DNA of 64,000 nt, taken from the NCBI RefSeq assembly GCF_003334335.1, contig NZ_QOWQ01000005.1, one strand, 5' to 3'. The notes below the pieces were generated by a model, which worked only from the letters and a program-made list of their open reading frames with translations, did no database searches and was not told the DNA's origin. This document shows positions 37,605 through 47,738 of this stretch, one piece after another; positions within the stretch are counted from its first letter, which is position 1, and every line of letters begins with the position of its first letter. The translations under genes were made by a program, and so were the position numbers. The stretch is from Escherichia coli. GTDB lineage: Bacteria > Pseudomonadota > Gammaproteobacteria > Enterobacterales > Enterobacteriaceae.

Positions 37605-38675
37605 GTGGAAAAGCCATTTCGAAAAATCCTGGTCATAAAGATGCGATATCACGGAGATATGTTATTAACTACTCCTGTAATCAGTACACTCAAGCAGAAT
37701 TATCCCGACGCAAAAATCGATATGCTGCTTTACCAGGATACAATTCCGATTTTATCTGAAAACCCAGAAATTAATGCACTCTATGGTATAAGCAATAAAG
37801 GTACGGGAACATTCGATAAAATTAAAAATGCACTTTCACTGATAAAAACTCTGCGTGCGAATAATTACGACCTGGTCATTAATCTTACGGATCAGTGGAT
37901 GGTGGCCCTGCTGGTACGTTGTTTACCTGCTCGTATGAAAATATCGCAGCTTTATGGTCATCGGCAGCATGGCATTTGGAAAAAAAGCTTTACACACTTA
38001 GCGCCTATACACGGTACACATATTGTTGAGCGTAATTTGTCGGTCCTTGAGCCATTAGGTATTACCGATTTTTATACTGAAACAACCATGAGTTACGCCG
38101 AGGATTGCTGGAAGAAAATGCGCCAGGAATTAGATGCACTGGGCGTGAAAGATCATTATGTCGTCATCCAGCCGACAGCCAGACAGATATTTAAGTGCTG
38201 GGACAACGATAAATTTTCTATGGTTATCGATGCGTTGCAACATCGTGGTTATCAGGTTGTGCTGACTTGTGGCCCTTCGGCAGATGATCTCGCTTGCGTA
38301 GATGAAATTGCACGAGGCTGCCAAACAAAACCTATTACCGGCCTTGCCGGTAAAACACGTTTTCCTGAACTGGGCGCATTAATTGATCATGCAGTGCTCT
38401 TTATTGGTGTGGATTCTGCGCCGGGGCATATTGCAGCGGCTGTGAAGACGCCAGTTATTAGCCTGTTTGGGGCCACTGATCATGTATTCTGGCGTCCATG
38501 GACCGAGAATATTATTCAGTTCTGGGCGGGGAATTATCAAAAAATGCCTACCCGGCACGAACTTGACCGCAACAAAAAATATCTTTCTGTTATTCCAGCG
38601 GAAGATGTCATTGCCGCTACGGAAAAGCTGTTGCCAGAAGATGCACCTTCAGCTGACAGGAATGCGCAATTATGA
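37605..38675 (+). CDS. waaQ: LPS core heptosyltransferase III (GT9)
   Basis: GT9 N-terminus KILVIKMRYHGDML aligns with waaC/waaF N-termini; ORF begins with GTG at 37605, alternative ATG at 37641. Confidence 0.8.
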   Translation: MEKPFRKILVIKMRYHGDMLLTTPVISTLKQNYPDAKIDMLLYQDTIPILSENPEINALYGISNKGTGTFDKIKNALSLIKTLRANNYDLVINLTDQWMVALLVRCLPARMKISQLYGHRQHGIWKKSFTHLAPIHGTHIVERNLSVLEPLGITDFYTETTMSYAEDCWKKMRQELDALGVKDHYVVIQPTARQIFKCWDNDKFSMVIDALQHRGYQVVLTCGPSADDLACVDEIARGCQTKPITGLAGKTRFPELGALIDHAVLFIGVDSAPGHIAAAVKTPVISLFGATDHVFWRPWTENIIQFWAGNYQKMPTRHELDRNKKYLSVIPAEDVIAATEKLLPEDAPSADRNAQL

Positions 38676-39796
38676 TCGTGGCATTTTGCTTATATAAATA
38701 TTTTCCATTTGGTGGGCTACAGCGTGACTTTATGCGTATTGCCTCAACAGTTGCCGCACGGGGCCACCATGTTCGGGTATATACACAGTCGTGGGAAGGC
38801 GATTGCCCGGAAGCATTTGAGCTTATTCGCGTACCGGTTAAATCCCATACTAACCATGGACGTAATGCAGAATATTATGCCTGGGTTCAAAACCATCTGA
38901 AGGCACATCCCGCTGATCGCGTTGTTGGCTTTAATAAGATGCCTAGGCTGGATGTTTATTTTGCCGCCGATGTCTGTTATGCCGAGAAAGTGGCGCAAGA
39001 AAAGGGATTTTTCTATCGTTTAACATCGCGCTATCGCCATTATGCTGCATTCGAGCGAGCGACTTTCGAACATGGTAAATCGACGAAACTTATGATGTTG
39101 ACCGATAAGCAAATCGCCGATTTTCAGAAGCATTACCAAACTGAACCAGAACGTTTTCAAATTCTTCCCCCTGGTATCTATCCTGACAGAAAATACAACG
39201 CGCAAATCCCAAACAGTCGTGAAATTTATCGCCAGAAAAATGGCATCACTGAACAACAAAACTTATTGCTGCAGGTTGGTTCAGATTTTGGTCGTAAAGG
39301 TGTGGATCGCTCAATTGAAGCTTTGGCATCGTTACCAGAATCGTTACGCCATAATACGTTGTTGTTTGTTGTTGGCCAGGATAAACCGCGTAAATTTGAA
39401 GTGCTGGCAGAAAAACTCGGTGTGCGTAGTAAAGTGCATTTCTTTTCCGGGCGGAATGATGTGTCTGAATTAATGGCAGCCGCTGATTTATTAATGCATC
39501 CCGCTTATCAGGAGGCTGCAGGTATTGTTCTCCTTGAGGCAATTGCCGCGGGATTACCTGTGTTGACGACTGCGGTATGCGGATACGCACACTATATCAC
39601 AGATGCTAATTGTGGAACGGTCATCGCTGAACCTTTCTCCCAGGAACAATTAAATGACGTTTTACGTAAAGCGTTAACTCAATCTCCATTGCGCATGGCC
39701 TGGGCGGAGAATGCTCGGTATTACGCCGATACTCAGGATTTATACAGCCTGCCGGAGAAAGCGGCAGATATCATTACAGGTGGTTTAGATGGTTGA
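38672..39796 (+). CDS. waaG: LPS core glucosyltransferase I (GT4)
   Basis: 374-aa GT4 ORF; 4-bp overlap with waaQ. Confidence 0.9.
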
Positions 39797-40586
39797 ATTA
39801 GAAGAGCCACTTGCCACACTCTGGCGTGGTAAAGATGCCTTTGCAGAAGTTAAAAAACTGAATGGCGAGGTCTTCCGTGAACTGGAGACGCGTCGCACAT
39901 TACGCTTTGAACTGGCCGGCAAAAGTTATTTCCTCAAATGGCACAAAGGGACGACCCTAAAGGAGATTATAAAAAATCTGCTCTCATTGCGGATGCCCGT
40001 TTTAGGTGCAGACAGAGAGTGGCACGCTATTCATCGACTGCATGATGTCGGTGTTGATACGATGCACGGAATAGGATTTGGTGAAAAAGGGTTAAATCCA
40101 TTAACTCGCACATCATTTATTATTACCGAAGATCTCACTCCCACAATTAGCCTTGAAGATTATTGTGCAGATTGGGCGGTCAACCCGCCTGATGTACATA
40201 TTAAGCGTATGCTGATCGCGCGTGTGGCAACCATGGTGCGCAAAATGCATGCAGCAGGGATTAATCACCGTGATTGTTATATCTGCCACTTTTTACTCCA
40301 TTTGCCATTTACTGGCCGGGAAGATGAATTAAAAATTTCGGTTATCGATCTGCACCGGGCACAGATACGTGCAAAAGTACCACGTCGTTGGCGGGATAAA
40401 GATTTGATTGGTTTATATTTCTCATCAATGAATATTGGTCTGACGCAGAGAGATATCTGGCGATTTATGAAGGTTTATTTTGGGATGCCTTTACGCGATA
40501 TTTATAGACTTGAGATTGATTTACTTAAAAAGGCAAGGATTAAAGCAGGAAAAATAGAAGCAAGAACAATAAGAAAAAACTTGTAA
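39789..40586 (+). CDS. waaP: LPS core heptose(I) kinase
   Basis: 265-aa kinase-like ORF; 8-bp overlap with waaG. Confidence 0.9.
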
Positions 40587-40618
40587 ATAGTATTTTATTA
40601 CAAAAAGGGATTCTAAAA

Positions 40619-41599
40619 TTGTTGAAATATAGAAACTTCGTTGCTAAGAAGAAAAATTTATACCAAAACGAAGTGTCGTATGTTAAAAATTTACATATTG
40701 CACTATGCTTTGACCGTGAATTCATAATGCCAGCGGGTGTTGCATTATATTCAATTATATCCAACAATAGACATATTAACCTTCATTTTCACCTTCTTAT
40801 ATCAGGCATAGAAGAAAAGGAGTGTTCAGCTTTTTACGAACTAGAAGGTCCTAATACATCAATATCTGTATATTATATAACTGATAAATTTGACATTAAT
40901 CCGGATACATTAGTTCTTGGTATTCCTTTATCAACATGTTTACGTTTTTTAATCCCAGAAGTTATTGATGATAAAATAAATAAGATACTTTATCTTGACT
41001 GTGATGTCATATGTAATGGTCCTTTAGATGAACTGGTTGATTATAATTTAAATGCTGATATTGCATGTGTAATTCCAGATTCGCCAGAAATGCAAGAACG
41101 TGTAAAAAAATTAGACTATGGCATTGAGTTTATTAATTATTTTAATGCCGGGGTTATGTTTATTAATACCAGCGAATGGAAAAAAAATAATATAACACAA
41201 AAAGCGTTAGAAATGATCAACAGTGGAAAAGTATATAGGTATGCAGATCAGGATGTGCTCAATATTTTACTTAATGGACGAGTGCATTACCTTGATAAGA
41301 AGTACAATAATAAGACAACATTGTCAGTACGATGTGATGAAGAACAAAAAAACTTGCCCAACACAATTATAATGCATTATGTTACCCAGAATAAACCATG
41401 GTACAAAATATTTAGAGCACAAAATTTTGATCATTATTTTTCAAATTCTCCTTGGAAGAACCATAAAAGAAATCTAGCTCCATCATCAAGTGAGATTAGG
41501 TTAAAGTCTAAAGTTTTTTGGCTAGAAGGAAAATATTGTAAAGCCATTTCTTATTATTATAAGTATTTACTTGTTAAATTATTTGGCTTAAAGATTTAG
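40619..41599 (+). CDS. GT8-family LPS core glycosyltransferase in the slot after waaP
   Basis: 326-aa ORF with GT8 motifs YLDCDVIC (DxD) and HYVTQNKPW; very AT-rich; exact orthology (waaS-position gene versus an extra GT8 paralogue) not resolved. Confidence 0.6.
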   Translation: MLKYRNFVAKKKNLYQNEVSYVKNLHIALCFDREFIMPAGVALYSIISNNRHINLHFHLLISGIEEKECSAFYELEGPNTSISVYYITDKFDINPDTLVLGIPLSTCLRFLIPEVIDDKINKILYLDCDVICNGPLDELVDYNLNADIACVIPDSPEMQERVKKLDYGIEFINYFNAGVMFINTSEWKKNNITQKALEMINSGKVYRYADQDVLNILLNGRVHYLDKKYNNKTTLSVRCDEEQKNLPNTIIMHYVTQNKPWYKIFRAQNFDHYFSNSPWKNHKRNLAPSSSEIRLKSKVFWLEGKYCKAISYYYKYLLVKLFGLKI

Positions 41600-41612
41600 C
41601 TGGAATGAAATT

Positions 41613-42692
41613 ATGAAAATAGCCTTTATTGGCGAAGCTGTTTCTGGATTTGGCGGCATGGAAACAGTCATTCGTGATGTTATTACTACCTTCAGGCAAC
41701 AACATATCCAAAGTGAAATTTTTTTCTTTTGTCGTAATGACAAAATGGATAAGGGATGGCTGGAAGGTATTAAGTACTCGTGTTCATTTTCCAATATTCG
41801 CTTAGGTTTTTTGCGTCGCGCGAAACATATTCATGCTTTAAGCAAATGGCTTCATGATTATCAGCCAGATGTTGTTATTTGTATTGACGTGATCTCGTGT
41901 TTGTATGCGGCCAAAGCTCGTAAAAAATCGGGGATTGATGTACCTGTATTTTCATGGCCGCATTTTTCTTTAGATCATAAAAAACATGCCGAATATATCA
42001 CCTGTGCCGACTATCATTTAGCCATCAGCTCTGGTATTAAACAGCAAATGATTAGCCGGGGTGTACCAGAATCGACAATAAACGTTATTTTTAATCCCGT
42101 TGAGGCGAAAAATTCAGTCATTCCTGCACCCGGGGAAGGCGAAACGGCAACATTCATTTATGTTGGGCGCATGAAATTTGAAGGCCAAAAGCGCGTAAAA
42201 GATCTGCTTGATGGCTTATCACAAGTGCAAGGTGACTGGAAACTTCATGTATTGGGAGATGGCTCCGATTTCGAAAAATGCCAGGCTTATGGTAGAGGAT
42301 TAAATATTGATGATCGAATTGTCTGGTATGGTTGGCAACAACATCCCTGGAAATTAGTTCAGCAAGATATTAAAAAAGTGAGTGCATTATTACTCACGTC
42401 ATCTTTTGAAGGTTTCCCAATGACTCTACTTGAAGCCTTGTCGTGGGGGATCCCTTGTATCAGTGCAGATTGTGTCTCCGGGCCTGTTGATATCATTCAG
42501 CCTGATGTTAATGGTCATTTATATCAACCGGGGGATATGACCGGTTTTGTTGCTCTTCTCAATAAATACATAGCCGGTGAAATTCACATCGCACATGAAA
42601 AAATTCCGGCGTCGATCGATAAATTTTATCAACCGAAATATTACGACAGATTGCAAAAGATAATTATTTCTGTTATTTCCCGGAGGAAATAA
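41613..42692 (+). CDS. waaB: LPS core alpha-1,6-galactosyltransferase (GT4)
   Basis: 359-aa GT4 ORF; length and position match waaB. Confidence 0.8.
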   Translation: MKIAFIGEAVSGFGGMETVIRDVITTFRQQHIQSEIFFFCRNDKMDKGWLEGIKYSCSFSNIRLGFLRRAKHIHALSKWLHDYQPDVVICIDVISCLYAAKARKKSGIDVPVFSWPHFSLDHKKHAEYITCADYHLAISSGIKQQMISRGVPESTINVIFNPVEAKNSVIPAPGEGETATFIYVGRMKFEGQKRVKDLLDGLSQVQGDWKLHVLGDGSDFEKCQAYGRGLNIDDRIVWYGWQQHPWKLVQQDIKKVSALLLTSSFEGFPMTLLEALSWGIPCISADCVSGPVDIIQPDVNGHLYQPGDMTGFVALLNKYIAGEIHIAHEKIPASIDKFYQPKYYDRLQKIIISVISRRK

Positions 42693-43711
42693 TGCAGCAG
42701 GTTTTTTTCCAGGAGACTGAGTTTCTCAATTCGGTTATTGATTATAATCATAAAATAGAAGCAGAAAATCTTTGTCTGGATATTGCTTATGGGACTGACA
42801 AAAATTTTCTTTTTGGATGCGGAATATCGATTGCTTCAATATTAAAATATAATGAAGGAAATCAATTATGCTTTCATATTTTTACTGATTATTTCGGTGA
42901 TGACGATCGCAAATATTTTGATGCCCTGGCCAGGCAATATAAAACAAGAATTAAGATATATTTAATTAATGGTGATCGACTCCGTTCATTACCCTGCACC
43001 AAGAACTGGACTCATGCTATTTATTTTCGTTTTGTTATCGCCGATTACTTTTTTAATAAAGCACCCAAAGTTCTTTATCTGGATGCAGATATTATTTGTC
43101 AGGGAACTATAGAACCACTTATCAATTACACGTTTTCTGAACATACAGTCGCAATGGTTGTTACAGAAGGACAAAAAGACTGGTGGGCAAAACGTGCTCA
43201 TTCGTTAGGTGTTGCTGGGATTGCTAATGGTTACTTTAACTCCGGTTTTTTACTGATTAATACTAATCAATGGACGAATGAGCGGGTTTCTGCACGGGCC
43301 ATTGCAATGTTAAGTGATCCAGAGATAGTCAAAAAAATAACACATCCTGATCAGGATGTATTAAATATGTTATTGGCAGACAAACTTGTTTATGCTGATA
43401 TTAAATATAACACTCAGTTTAGTTTAAATTATCAACTAAAAGAAAGTTTTAAAAACCCAGTAACTAACGATACAGTTTTTATTCATTATATTGGTCCAAC
43501 TAAACCCTGGCATGACTGGGCCTGGGATTATCCAATATCACAAGCTTTTATGGCGGCAAAAAATGCTTCACCATGGAAGGATACTGCGTTATTGAAACCG
43601 GTTAATAGTAATCAATTAAGATACAGTGCTAAACATATGTTGAAAAAAAAGCAATATATCAAAGGATTTGGCAACTATCTTTTGTATTTTATAAAAAAGC
43701 TAAAGCATTAA
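42692..43711 (+). CDS. waaO: LPS outer-core GT8 glycosyltransferase (waaO/waaI type)
   Basis: 339 aa; GT8 motifs YLDADIIC and HYIGPTKPW; donor sugar specificity cannot be read from sequence. Confidence 0.7.
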   Translation: MQQVFFQETEFLNSVIDYNHKIEAENLCLDIAYGTDKNFLFGCGISIASILKYNEGNQLCFHIFTDYFGDDDRKYFDALARQYKTRIKIYLINGDRLRSLPCTKNWTHAIYFRFVIADYFFNKAPKVLYLDADIICQGTIEPLINYTFSEHTVAMVVTEGQKDWWAKRAHSLGVAGIANGYFNSGFLLINTNQWTNERVSARAIAMLSDPEIVKKITHPDQDVLNMLLADKLVYADIKYNTQFSLNYQLKESFKNPVTNDTVFIHYIGPTKPWHDWAWDYPISQAFMAAKNASPWKDTALLKPVNSNQLRYSAKHMLKKKQYIKGFGNYLLYFIKKLKH

Positions 43712-43779
43712 TACTGATAATCTATACTCTAAATAATTCGAGTTGCAGGACAAAAAGCCAGTGGCGTTTTGAGGAACGC

Positions 43780-43870
43780 TTGCGTTGGCCCTGAAATGCC
43801 GAGTAACTCGCCGATGCAGCACATGCAACTTGAAGTATAACGAGTATATAAAGTAATGATATAAGGATAG
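43780..43870 (+). repeat. possible ERIC-flank-like fragment in the waaO-waaJ spacer
   Basis: GCAGCACATGCAACTTGAAGTATAACGAGTATA resembles the flanking arm of the ERIC copy at 51001..51082; no 44-bp core present. Confidence 0.35.
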
Positions 43871-43874
43871 CCTT

Positions 43875-44891
43875 GTGAACTCATTTCCTGCCATAGAGAT
43901 AGATAAAGTTAAAGCCTGGGATTTTAGGCTTATTGATGAAAATACTGCTGAAAGTTTAAATGTTGCCTATGGTGTCGATTCCAATTATCTTGATGGTGTA
44001 GGTGTTTCCATTACTTCAATTGTCATTAATAATCGACATGTTAATCTTGATTTTTATATTATTGCTGATGTTTATAACGACGATTTCTTTCAAAAAGTTG
44101 AGAAACTTGCTGAGCAATACCAATTAAGAATCACACTTTATAGAATAAATACTGATAATCTTCAGTGCCTGCCTTGTACACAAGTCTGGTCAAGAGCAAT
44201 GTACTTCCGTTTATTTGCTTTTCAATTATTGGGAGTAACACTTAATCGTTTGCTTTATCTTGATGCCGATGTAGTTTGTAAGGGAAATATTAGTCAACTA
44301 TTGCATTTAGAGTTTAATGGAGCGGTGGCTGCAGTAGTCAGGGATGTAGACCCAATGCAGGAAAAGGCGGTAGTCAGATTATCTGATCCTGAACTTCGGG
44401 GGCAGTATTTTAATTCTGGTGTCGTTTACTTAGACCTAAAAAAATGGACAGAAGCAAAACTAACCGAAAAAGCACTGTCTATTCTTATGAGTAAAGATAG
44501 TATTTATAAGTATCCTGACCAGGACGTTATGAATGTCCTACTAAAAGGGATGACAATATTCCTGCCACGTGAGTTCAATACTATATATACAATAAAAAGT
44601 GAGTTAAAAGATAAAACGCATCAAAAATATAAAGAGTTGATAAAAGAGGATACTCTTCTTATTCATTATACTGGGGCCACCAAGCCGTGGCACAAATGGG
44701 CAATTTATCCATCGGTAAAATACTATAAAATAGCTTTAGAAAGATCCCCCTGGAAAGATGACTCACCACGAGATGCAAAATCAATTATTGAATTCAAAAA
44801 AAGATATAAACATCTGTTAGTGCAACATCATTATATCTCAGGACTCATTGCAGGAGTGTGTTATCTTTGCCGAAAATATTACCGTAAATAA
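43875..44891 (+). CDS. waaJ: LPS outer-core GT8 glycosyltransferase (waaJ/waaR type)
   Basis: 338 aa; GT8 motifs YLDADVVC and HYTGATKPW. Confidence 0.7.
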   Translation: MNSFPAIEIDKVKAWDFRLIDENTAESLNVAYGVDSNYLDGVGVSITSIVINNRHVNLDFYIIADVYNDDFFQKVEKLAEQYQLRITLYRINTDNLQCLPCTQVWSRAMYFRLFAFQLLGVTLNRLLYLDADVVCKGNISQLLHLEFNGAVAAVVRDVDPMQEKAVVRLSDPELRGQYFNSGVVYLDLKKWTEAKLTEKALSILMSKDSIYKYPDQDVMNVLLKGMTIFLPREFNTIYTIKSELKDKTHQKYKELIKEDTLLIHYTGATKPWHKWAIYPSVKYYKIALERSPWKDDSPRDAKSIIEFKKRYKHLLVQHHYISGLIAGVCYLCRKYYRK

Positions 44892-44908
44892 CATTTAACT
44901 GGTTTAAC

Positions 44909-45607
44909 ATGATTCAGAAGAATAAAATCAAAGATTTAGTTGTTTTTACCGATGAAAATAACTCAAAGTATCTCAATGTATTAAATGACTTTCTTTCTTA
45001 TGATATTAATATCATCAAAGTTTTTCGTTCTATAGATGATACAAAAGTCATGCTTATTGATACCGATTACGGTAAATTGATACTTAAAGTTTTTTCGCCT
45101 AAAGTAAAACGCAACGAACGTTTCTTTAAATCTCTTTTAAAGGGAGATTATTATGAACGCCTTTTTGAGCATACTCAAAAAGTGCGTAACGAGGGGCTAC
45201 ATTCTCTCAATGATTTTTATTTGTTGGCAGAACGGAAAACATTACGTTTTGTCCATACTTATATCATGCTTATCGAATATATCGATGGCGTAGAGTTGTG
45301 TGATATCCCCGATATTGATGAAACTTTAAAAAATAAAATTCAACAATCAATTCGTTCATTACACGAACACGGTATGGTATCTGGTGATCCTCACCGCGGT
45401 AATTTTATTATTGAAAATGGTGAAGTACGCATTATTGATCTTTCAGGAAAACGGGCATCTGCACAACGTAAAGCGAAAGATCGTATTGATTTAGAGCGAC
45501 ATTATGGTATTAAGAATGAGGTTAAAGATCTCGGTTATTATCTTTTAGTTTATCGTAAAAAAATACGTAATCTTATGCGGCGTTTGAAAGGGAAGCCAGC
45601 ACGATAA
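44909..45607 (+). CDS. waaY: LPS core heptose(II) kinase
   Basis: 232-aa kinase-like ORF; length and position match waaY. Confidence 0.75.
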   Translation: MIQKNKIKDLVVFTDENNSKYLNVLNDFLSYDINIIKVFRSIDDTKVMLIDTDYGKLILKVFSPKVKRNERFFKSLLKGDYYERLFEHTQKVRNEGLHSLNDFYLLAERKTLRFVHTYIMLIEYIDGVELCDIPDIDETLKNKIQQSIRSLHEHGMVSGDPHRGNFIIENGEVRIIDLSGKRASAQRKAKDRIDLERHYGIKNEVKDLGYYLLVYRKKIRNLMRRLKGKPAR

Positions 45608-45678
45608 AGTAAAAGTCTTACATTTAAACGTCTTCGTCAGGACATTTCTATGCGGAGTTCTTATTTCACAGGTTTATC

Positions 45679-46488
45679 ATGAAGAATATTAGATACATTG
45701 ACAAAAAAGATGTTGAAAACCTGATAGAAAGTAAAACGTCTGATGATGTTATTATTTTTCTTTCCGGCCCCGCATCGCAAAAAACACCATTGTCAGTGCT
45801 GCAGACAAGGGATGTTATTGCTGTCAATGGTTCTGCACAATATCTATTAAGTCATAATATTATTCCCTATATTTATGTACTTACCGATGTTCGCTTTTTA
45901 CATCAACGGCGTGATGATTTTTATAAATTTAGCCAGAGAAGTCGTTATACCATCGTAAATGTTGACGTTTATGAACATGCTTCTGAAGAAGATAAGCGGT
46001 ACATCCTTCAAAACTGCCTGGTACTACGTTCATTTTACCGCAGAGAAAAAGGTGGATTGATCAAGAAGATCAAGTTTAATATTTTGAGCCGAATTCATAA
46101 AGAGCTCCTGATCTCTGTACCTTTTTCTAAAAAAGGTCGTCTGGTTGGCTTTTGCAAGGATATTAACCTCGGTTATTGTTCATGCCATACCGTTGCTTTT
46201 GCTGCAATCCAAATAGCCTATTCGCTGAAGTATGCTCGTATTATCTGTTCAGGCCTTGATTTAACGGGTAGCTGTTCGCGTTTCTATGATGAAGATAAGA
46301 ATCCTATGCCCTCAGAGTTGACTCGGGATTTATTCAAAATTTTACCATTTTTCCGTTTTATGCGTGAAAATATAGAAGATATCAATATTTATAATTTATC
46401 CGACGATACTGCAATTCAATATGATATTATTCCCTATATGAAAATATCCGAAATTGAAGAGCCGTGTGTTTATGAAAAAATAAGCTAA
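45679..46488 (+). CDS. waaZ: LPS core biosynthesis protein (KdoIII-associated, WaaZ-like)
   Basis: 269-aa ORF in the waaZ position; assigned by position and composition. Confidence 0.6.
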   Translation: MKNIRYIDKKDVENLIESKTSDDVIIFLSGPASQKTPLSVLQTRDVIAVNGSAQYLLSHNIIPYIYVLTDVRFLHQRRDDFYKFSQRSRYTIVNVDVYEHASEEDKRYILQNCLVLRSFYRREKGGLIKKIKFNILSRIHKELLISVPFSKKGRLVGFCKDINLGYCSCHTVAFAAIQIAYSLKYARIICSGLDLTGSCSRFYDEDKNPMPSELTRDLFKILPFFRFMRENIEDINIYNLSDDTAIQYDIIPYMKISEIEEPCVYEKIS

Positions 46489-46540
46489 TATTTTATATGT
46501 GTTTATTACGTGTTATAAATTATATTGGAGTTGGCTAATA

Positions 46541-47683
46541 ATGATTAAAAAAATAATATTTACCGTCACACCAATATTTTCTATACCGCCAAAAGGAGCT
46601 GCAGCGGTTGAAACATGGATTTATCAGGTCGCAAAAAGACTTTCGATTCCAGTAACTATCGCCTGTATTCGAAACGAAGGTTACCCAACCTACACAAAAG
46701 TAAATGATCACTGTGATATTCACTACATTGGTTTTAGTCGAGTCTATAAACGACTTTTCCAAAAGTGGACTCGACTTGATCCTGTGCCATATTCTCAGCG
46801 TATTTTAAATACCCAACCTAAAAACACTGATCCGAAAGACTCTGTTATTGTTATCCACAATAGCATGAAGCTGTATAAACAGATTCGTAGCAGAAGCCCT
46901 CACGCGCAGCTAGTTATGCATCTTCATAATGCTTTCGAGCCAGGTGAGTTAGACAAAAATGCAAAGATAATTGTTCCTAGCCAGTTTCTTTTCGATTTCT
47001 ATTCGGAAAAAATGCCTGATGCAAATATTGCTATTGTGCCTAATGGTTTTTGTTCTGAATCGTATGAACAAAATAATACTGAAGATTTGAGGCAGAAACT
47101 GAACATTGATGCAAATGATACCGTGTTATTATTTGCAGGAAGGATATCACCAGATAAAGGTTGCCTGATGCTTATGGAGGCTTTTAATCAGCTGAATAAG
47201 ATACAAGATAACCTCAAACTGGTGATTGTCGGAGATCCTTTTGCCAGTAAAAAAGGCGAAAAAGCTGAATATCAGAAAAAAGTTCTGGATGCAGCGAAAG
47301 CTATTGGAGCGCAATGCATTATGGCGGGTGGACAGCCTCCAGAGCAGATGCATAACTATTACCGTTTAGCAGATTTAGTTGTTGTTCCTTCTCAGGTAGA
47401 AGAAGCTTTTTGTATGGTAGCTGTTGAAGCGATGGCGGCAGGTAAACCAGTGCTTGCCAGTCAAAAAGGTGGAATTAGTGAGTTTGTTCTGGAAGGAATT
47501 ACAGGCTATCACCTTGCAGAGCCTATGACATCTGAAAGTATTCTCGCGGATATTAAGCGCGTTTTGGCGGATGCTGACAGAGCTCAAATTGCTAAAAATG
47601 CCCGAAATTTTGTTTTCTCAAAATATAGCTGGGAACATGTTACTCAGCGTTTTGAAGCACAAATACAAGACTGGTTTGGTTAA
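46541..47683 (+). CDS. waaK: GT4 LPS outer-core transferase (WaaK-like, putative GlcNAc transferase)
   Basis: 380 aa from MIKKIIF, preceded by ggag; GT4 E-x7-E motif (VEEAFCMVAVEAMAAGKPV); occupies the terminal slot before waaL. Confidence 0.7.
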   Translation: MIKKIIFTVTPIFSIPPKGAAAVETWIYQVAKRLSIPVTIACIRNEGYPTYTKVNDHCDIHYIGFSRVYKRLFQKWTRLDPVPYSQRILNTQPKNTDPKDSVIVIHNSMKLYKQIRSRSPHAQLVMHLHNAFEPGELDKNAKIIVPSQFLFDFYSEKMPDANIAIVPNGFCSESYEQNNTEDLRQKLNIDANDTVLLFAGRISPDKGCLMLMEAFNQLNKIQDNLKLVIVGDPFASKKGEKAEYQKKVLDAAKAIGAQCIMAGGQPPEQMHNYYRLADLVVVPSQVEEAFCMVAVEAMAAGKPVLASQKGGISEFVLEGITGYHLAEPMTSESILADIKRVLADADRAQIAKNARNFVFSKYSWEHVTQRFEAQIQDWFG

Positions 47684-47702
47684 AAATTATTGGATTTGAA
47701 GA

Positions 47703-47738
47703 GCCTGCCTGAACTTAATGTCAGGCAGGCTTTTTTTT
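47703..47738 (+). terminator. intrinsic terminator after waaK (bidirectional, shared with convergent waaL)
   Basis: GCCTGCCTGA-acttaatg-TCAGGCAGGC perfect 10-bp stem followed by an 8-T run. Confidence 0.7.

Follow-up and report, generated by a model that had tools for sequence, protein, structure and literature searches.

wabA, an accessory family 8 glycosyltransferase gene of the Escherichia coli R2 core locus with a predicted role in a minor lipopolysaccharide glycoform

The open reading frame (ORF) that lies between waaP and waaB in a 64,000-nucleotide stretch of the Escherichia coli contig NZ_QOWQ01000005.1 (the window hereafter) is wabA, an already named glycosyltransferase family 8 (GT8) gene of the R2 core locus and not a new gene. 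We hold with good confidence that it is an accessory GT8 gene of R2, whose predicted product would be a minor or conditional hexose on the lipid A-core. The core of lipopolysaccharide (LPS) serves as a phage receptor, as a target of vaccines and antibodies and as the attachment site of the O antigen, and the five core types of E. coli are treated as explained gene by gene. The evidence for the reading offered here comes from the arrangement of the locus, the reading frame and its conserved start, the alignment and modelled fold of the enzyme, the distribution of orthologues and a comparison of sugar donors among the outer-core GT8 enzymes.

The R2 core locus and the identity of the gene

Curated NCBIfam models identify the plus-strand ORFs between 37605 and 47683 as LPS-core genes, namely RfaQ, (WaaG), RfaP, a GT8 without a name, WaaB (1,6-galactosyltransferase), two further GT8s, RfaY, WaaZ and a WaaK-type N-acetylglucosaminyltransferase. 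The waaO ORF scores above the cut-off of the NCBIfam '3-alpha-galactosyltransferase' model (WaaO/I type), while the waaR ORF is a WaaR/J-type GT8. The gene order in the window, waaQ-G-P-[ORF]-B-O-R-Y-Z-K with waaL, waaC and waaF on the opposite strand, is the R2 core-type arrangement of E. coli, and E. coli chromosomes with the same annotation match the region at 100% identity. The initial annotation had placed the gene in the slot immediately after waaP, in a cluster of three GT8 paralogues plus waaB, and the locus bears this out: the gaps that flank wabA measure 32 nt after the waaP stop (which ends at 40586) and 13 nt before waaB, the paralogues are the wabA ORF, waaO and waaR/J, and waaB is a GT4 gene (Table 1). 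A scan of the plus strand from waaQ to 42378 found no terminator-like site, so that we read wabA as co-transcribed within the waaQ operon, and a strong hairpin terminator lies 3' of waaK at 47698-47735.

Table 1. Coordinates of the wabA gene, its coding features and its neighbours in the window
Feature	Position	Strand	Basis
waaQ operon, waaQ start to terminator hairpin	37605..47735	+	ORFs, NCBIfam, terminator scan
waaP, heptose I kinase, upstream neighbour	39789..40586	+	NCBIfam NF011703, 459.8 bits
Shine-Dalgarno-like AAGGG, 9 nt 5' of the TTG start	40605..40609	+	read from sequence
wabA coding sequence, 326 aa, predicted TTG start, TAG stop	40619..41599	+	ORF, Pfam, PGAP annotation
Strand beta1 and loop LHIALCFD, aa 25-32	40691..40714	+	orthologue and LgtC alignments
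DxD motif D127-C-D129, predicted metal and UDP-sugar binding	40997..41005	+	aligns with LgtC D103-I-D105
YFNAG motif, aa 174-178; N176 = LgtC N153	41138..41152	+	alignment
D210-Q211-D212, predicted sugar-binding/catalytic region	41246..41254	+	aligns with LgtC D188-Q189-D190
HYVTQNKPW; H253 = LgtC H244, K259 = LgtC K250 (diphosphate)	41375..41401	+	alignment
GT8 C-terminal domain; predicted helices aa 290-302 and 306-322	41417..41578	+	Pfam, AlphaFold2 model
waaB, alpha-1,6-galactosyltransferase, GT4, downstream neighbour	41613..42692	+	NCBIfam NF007396, 592.9 bits
waaO, GT8 paralogue, 28% identity to WabA	42692..43711	+	NCBIfam model and pairwise comparison
waaR (rfaJ), GT8 paralogue, 29% identity to WabA	43875..44891	+	NCBIfam model and pairwise comparison

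Several properties tie the gene to R2: its waaP-waaB position, the waaZ-waaK genes and Salmonella-like waaL at the end of the locus, and its identity to R2 copies. In the R2 strains (prototype F632; ECOR11) WabA is the same gene in the same waaP-waaB position, 100% identical and without any difference. The name wabA reportedly goes back to Heinrichs et al. in 1998, who are said to have left the function open. In a 2025 paper wabA is described as the R2-specific counterpart of K-12 waaS, a supplementary table gives the R2 gene order as waaR, waaO, waaB, wabA, waaP, and the frequency of R2 is put at 8.15% (PMC13293308). We found wabA in 503 of 5426 complete E. coli genomes (9.3%; megablast and blastn agree), which agrees with that published frequency. 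All 503 copies are chromosomal and single, with at least 80% of the length covered; identity is at least 99% in 485 of them and 90-95% in 17 (a minority allele at 94%). Every one of about 80 sampled rows, taken in overlapping samples from a table that does not flag pseudogenes, was annotated as GT8 or glycosyltransferase. The 'partial' E. coli cluster P0004 (237 aa) might have been a truncated wabA allele, but it lacks a start codon and is a fragment cut off by a contig edge. A literature search on WabA and WP_000922462 returned nothing on function apart from PMC13293308 and PMC7504096.

Two neighbouring regions of the locus carry features of their own. The longest waaK ORF opens at GTG 46499 and encodes 394 aa, the PGAP start is ATG 46541 (380 aa), and the alignment to the NCBIfam model begins at residue 15 of the 394-aa ORF. 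The waaO-waaR intergenic region (43712-43874) is 163 bp long versus 39 bp in K-12. The roughly 125 bp of extra sequence form an element at about 43723-43848 with 25-nt imperfect terminal inverted repeats (TATACTCTAAATAATTCGAGTTGCA / TGCAACTTGAAGTATAACGAGTATA). Because this element recurs in 1368 E. coli genomes, in at most three places each, we regard it as a dispersed intergenic repeat, which we take to resemble an ERIC/IRU element.

Reading frame and start codon

The wabA ORF comprises 981 nt on the plus strand, that is 326 codons and a TAG stop, and its G+C content of 29.7% is the lowest of the cluster. In an E. coli genome that matches at 100% identity, PGAP annotates WP_000922462.1, a 'glycosyltransferase family 8 protein', at the same coordinates. 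Four in-frame start candidates follow the upstream stop: TTG 40619, TTG 40622, GTG 40673 (codon 19) and ATG 40727 (codon 37). An ATG had initially been read at 40619, where the codon is in fact TTG with a second TTG at 40622; the start had also been called ambiguous, and although the internal GTG and ATG named in that connection do exist, the first 36 residues are conserved, which leaves little real ambiguity. The orthologue alignment is conserved from the first residues (xxFVAKKxxLF) through strand beta1, all of it before M37, with C30, F31 and D32 invariant among orthologues. A start at the internal ATG 40727 was rejected, as it would delete conserved strand beta1 and D32.

The sequence upstream of the gene is similarly maintained. 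AAGGG, AAGGA or CAGGG, 9 nt ahead of a TTG, is also kept in loci L005 and L007 of other Escherichia lineages and in the Citrobacter locus L006, and in the Salmonella locus L003 AAGGA precedes a GTG at the homologous start site. PGAP places the start of WP_000922462.1 at the same TTG 40619. The predicted start of wabA is TTG 40619, or possibly the adjacent TTG 40622, because the N-terminus is conserved, the combination of a Shine-Dalgarno sequence with a non-ATG start is kept, and PGAP agrees.

In the Salmonella loci the ATG chosen by gene callers yields 290 aa and leaves an unexplained 164-nt gap after waaP. These automatic calls (L003 7838-8001; L077-L080 8838-9001) use an internal ATG, and the conserved N-terminus puts a GTG 108 nt upstream (L003 7893), from which we conclude that the 290-aa Salmonella database entries are N-terminally truncated.

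Enzyme family and predicted fold

Pfam assigns residues 26-263 to PF01501 (Glyco_transf_8, E=1.6e-49, model positions 1-251 of 253), a match that is far above chance, and also detects the GT8 C-terminal domain PF08437 (E=6.5e-6). The motifs that had initially been taken as GT8 hallmarks, YLDCDVIC and HYVTQNKPW, were located at aa 125-132 (nt 40991-41014) and aa 253-261 (nt 41375-41401), respectively, and Pfam agrees with the family assignment that had been drawn from them. Every catalytic residue of WabA aligns with its counterpart in LgtC, and D127/D129, D210-Q211-D212, H253 and K259 are invariant in 20 aligned sequences. D32 aligns with LgtC D8, a UDP ligand (PMC13128908). The AlphaFold2 model (pLDDT 85.7, pTM 0.85) displays the alternating strand-helix pattern of the GT-A fold followed by two C-terminal helices, and the best Foldseek matches in the PDB are all GT8 proteins (the WbbM GT8 domain, LgtC, GlyE and 3TZT, probability 1.00). 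The profile match, the DxD motif, the His and Lys of HxxGxxKPW together with DQD, and the GT-A fold all place the protein in GT8. From its sequence, the ORF is predicted to encode a complete, GT-A-fold, retaining family 8 glycosyltransferase in which all donor- and metal-binding residues are present.

Among the solved relatives, LgtC of Neisseria, an alpha-1,4-galactosyltransferase (PDB 1GA8, 1G9R, 1SS9), is one of the best matches after the WbbM GT8 domain, with a Foldseek E of about 1e-15 and a TM of 0.63-0.74. The donor and metal ligands of the two enzymes all align, whereas their identity is about 24-25%, LgtC is without a PF08437-type C-terminal extension, and LgtC differs from WabA in its acceptor, the lactose of LOS. 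The tail of WabA (aa 286-326, 41 residues) contains 8 K/R and 8 F/W/Y; analogy with other peripheral LPS transferases suggests membrane association, and this basic and aromatic tail is probably membrane- or LPS-binding.

Comparison with WaaS and other outer-core enzymes

The initial annotation had left two options, an orthologue of K-12 WaaS or an additional retaining glycosyltransferase, and had proposed alignment to WaaS, WaaT and WaaW as a check. When this was run, the second option held. BLASTP of WabA against WaaS of MG1655 found no similarity (the best alignment spans 21 residues at E=1.8), a Pfam search of K-12 WaaS found no domain, and WaaT and WaaW are 27-32% identical to WabA and fall outside its clade. 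WaaS occupies the same waaP-waaB slot in a closely related locus, also as an extremely AT-rich stretch, yet it shares neither sequence similarity nor a Pfam domain with WabA, which is a canonical GT8.

The comparison with the outer-core GT8 enzymes drew on the R3 (O157:H7, L081) and R1 (PSUO2, L082) loci, which supplied WaaI, WaaJ, WaaO, WaaT and WaaW. WaaO/WaaI, WaaR/WaaJ, WaaT and WaaW resemble WabA in family, in a length of about 330 aa, in the DxD, DQD and HxxxxxKPW motifs, in the GT8 C-terminal domain and in their place in the operon; however, they are only 26-32% identical to WabA, belong to other clades and lack its clade-specific substitutions. In a neighbour-joining tree with 100 bootstraps, WabA-like sequences form a clade at 100% that lies outside the WaaO/I (100%) and WaaR/J (100%) clades. 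Against the WaaO/I model NF011718 WabA scores 183.6 bits, where the cut-off is 461. It also differs at columns that are invariant in 11 characterized outer-core GT8 enzymes, including G to C30, G to P38 and G to T256, among others.

The waaP-waaB slot itself (window 40587-41612; K-12 locus L002 10182-11117; L083 17382-18457) is held by at least three occupants with no relation to one another, namely the GT8 enzyme WabA in R2 and others, WaaS in K-12, and two adjacent ORFs in the Salmonella Typhimurium-type locus L083. The L083 ORFs encode proteins of 127 aa and 230 aa, of which the latter matches Pfam PS_pyruv_trans, and together they have the appearance of a single pyruvyl-transferase-family gene that has been broken into two ORFs.

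Orthologues, synteny and selection

A protein search recovered relatives of WabA at 79-81% identity in E. coli/Escherichia variants, 63-64% in Citrobacter, 61-66% in Salmonella enterica, 60% in Pseudocitrobacter, 46% in Hafnia and 41-46% in many Gilliamella and other Orbaceae. The order waaP-[GT8]-waaB is kept in L005, in E. albertii (L007), in Citrobacter sp. NCU1 (L006) and in Salmonella (L003 and L077-L080). The Citrobacter cluster terminates in a WaaU-like heptosyltransferase and not in WaaK, the Salmonella loci have an intact waaK, and one of the Salmonella orthologues is annotated as subsp. salamae; since wabA occurs together with either a WaaU-like gene or waaK, it is not tied to WaaK. 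In Citrobacter sp. NCU1 (L006 15921-16976) wabA accompanies a K-12-type WaaU-like heptosyltransferase at 60% identity, and a rare E. coli 'R2/K-12 hybrid' with the same combination has been described (PMC13293308).

Across 14 orthologues 71 alignment columns are invariant, and the catalytic residues stay the same across the range from Escherichia to Gilliamella. Nei-Gojobori dN/dS values of 0.115 (against L005) and 0.150 (against L007) show that wabA is clearly under purifying selection. Its dN between Escherichia lineages, at about 0.11, is nonetheless the highest in the cluster, versus 0.014-0.068 for the other genes, and WabA is 79% identical to its L005 and L007 counterparts where the cluster neighbours reach 87-98% (WaaP 89-91%, WaaB 89-96%). 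Against Salmonella and Citrobacter, the identity of WabA (63-64%) is at the level of WaaB and above that of WaaO and WaaR (55-58%). The divergence of WabA between Escherichia lineages, together with its near-invariance within R2, may reflect recombination or a faster evolution of the cassette.

In Salmonella subsp. enterica (Newport, Anatum and others; cluster P0010) orthologues are annotated at 137-310 aa on long contigs, and full-length 326-aa Salmonella WabA is found in serovar Bere and in subsp. salamae. This suggests that wabA decayed repeatedly in Salmonella subspecies I. Because so many of the subsp. enterica orthologues are annotated as truncated, the gene appears dispensable in some lineages. 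A WaaL protein search gave mostly subsp. enterica and one salamae cluster among the matches listed, none of them named Arizonae. The 'WaaH' of Salmonella Arizonae, an alpha-1,2-glucosyltransferase, might be an orthologue of WabA, and might equally be a WaaK/WaaD-type GT4 enzyme. Gilliamella apicola and an Orbaceae genome (loci L017 5108-11943 and L008 5764-10942) carry four to five adjacent WabA-like GT8 paralogues, not all co-oriented and 27-46% identical to WabA, which marks an expansion of this clade among bacteria of the bee gut.

Predicted donor and role in the R2 core

The five outer-core sugars of R2 are attributed to WaaG, WaaO, WaaR, WaaB and WaaK. These enzymes account for the whole R2 core (Glc3-Gal-GlcNAc), which makes WabA an orphan transferase. 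By ESI-MS the R2 core oligosaccharide is Glc3-GlcNAc-Gal-Hep3-Kdo, as in the published structure (PMC7504096), and it has been remarked that WaaS and WabA may add further modifications (PMC13293308). The activity of WabA on LPS is predicted from its family and gene position.

To compare donors we used 11 outer-core GT8 enzymes, in which the glucose users are WaaO (K-12, R2, R1), WaaR (K-12, R2) and WaaJ (R3, Salmonella), and the galactose users are WaaI (R3, Salmonella), WaaT and WaaW. The donors of WaaI, WaaT, WbbM and GlyE are background assignments. Only three alignment columns part the glucose users from the galactose users among these 11 enzymes, a tentative rule derived here from roughly three independent contrasts. 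At two of the columns, T106 and A177 (within YFNAG), all seven WabA-clade sequences have the galactose state, where glucose enzymes have I/M and S, respectively. At the third column the A209 of WabA matches neither group (P/M in glucose enzymes, L in galactose enzymes). The column change is not merely phylogeny, because it follows the donor inside the WaaO/WaaI clade. The T/A pair also occurs in LgtC (T83/A154), the WbbM GT8 domain and GlyE, while the uncharacterized 3TZT has M/S; in LgtC these residues sit beside N153 within the loop that closes over the donor (PMC13128908). On this comparison of residues, the balance tips modestly towards UDP-Gal as the donor of WabA.

In the mechanism that we propose, WabA would bind a UDP-hexose and Mn2+ through D32, D127/D129, H253 and K259 at the cytoplasmic face of the inner membrane, where its basic and aromatic C-terminal helices would hold it on the membrane or on LPS. 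It would then move an alpha-linked hexose, predicted to come from UDP-galactose, onto a lipid A-core acceptor. The product would most likely be sub-stoichiometric, condition-dependent or confined to a minor glycoform, because the canonical R2 core is fully explained by WaaG, WaaB, WaaO, WaaR and WaaK. The weak TTG start is consistent with a low expression of wabA.

Alternative explanations

The shared waaP-waaB slot and the presence of waaZ in R2 too would suit an R2 orthologue of WaaS with the same job, that is the formation of rhamnose/KdoIII-containing alternative glycoforms. However, a common slot is not homology, the BLASTP and Pfam results given above refute orthology, and we regard this explanation as practically eliminated. 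WaaS and WabA may still be functional analogues, each of which modifies a minor glycoform in its own way. It is unlikely, in our judgement, that wabA is an evolutionary relic, intact-looking but silent, which contributes nothing to R2 LPS. The residues of the R2 core are all assigned to other enzymes, a TTG start and a G+C content of 29.7% would also suit a poorly expressed passenger gene, the dN of wabA tops the cluster, copies in Salmonella subsp. enterica are truncated, and unrelated genes fill the slot in K-12 and in the Typhimurium-type locus. Against this, dN/dS at 0.12-0.15 is far below neutral, the catalytic residues are unchanged as far as Gilliamella, all 503 complete E. coli genomes with the gene have one full-length copy, and the position as well as the non-ATG start with its Shine-Dalgarno sequence are conserved across four genera.

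A redundant isoenzyme of WaaO or WaaR, which would make the same linkage as a back-up, could account for the absence of an extra sugar and for the family, length and C-terminal domain that WabA shares with these enzymes. We consider it very improbable, given that WabA stands in a separate clade (100% bootstrap) at 26-32% identity to each characterized outer-core GT8, that T106 and A177 are of the Gal type and not the Glc type, and that C30, P38 and T256 depart from columns invariant in 11 enzymes. R2 waaO and waaR mutants are reported to be truncated although wabA is present. The orphan status of WabA in core structures would also be understandable if its target were not the core at all but an O-antigen or ECA unit, another glycolipid or a protein, and GT8 acceptors are indeed very diverse (the serine-rich protein of GlyE, glycogenin, the O antigen of WbbM). 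Such a target is more improbable still, as wabA lies between core genes in one operon in each enterobacterial locus examined, as WabA has a PF08437 domain like the core enzymes WaaO/I and WaaR/J here, and as its linkage is with core type and has no tie to any O serotype. The reading that we favour is that of an accessory transferase which would act on a minor or conditional glycoform of the R2 lipid A-core.

Implications for core diversity

The gene itself was already known; what the present analysis resolves is that it is not waaS, that its start is predicted to be TTG, that it is under selection and that its donor is probably UDP-Gal as judged from alignment. Tentatively, and with doubts of our own, we propose that WabA may add a so far unnoticed, sub-stoichiometric or conditional alpha-galactose to the outer core of R2 E. 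coli and of the Salmonella, Citrobacter and E. albertii carriers, and that the waaP-waaB slot may be a swappable 'modifier cassette' which tunes minor glycoforms. If true, a swappable slot of this kind would affect recognition by phages, lectins or antibodies as well as O-antigen ligation. WabA is among the few core-locus genes without an assigned reaction, and the R2 core type is carried by about 9% of E. coli. The R2 pathway would be complete once the addition made by WabA is known, and a hidden glycoform could come to light.
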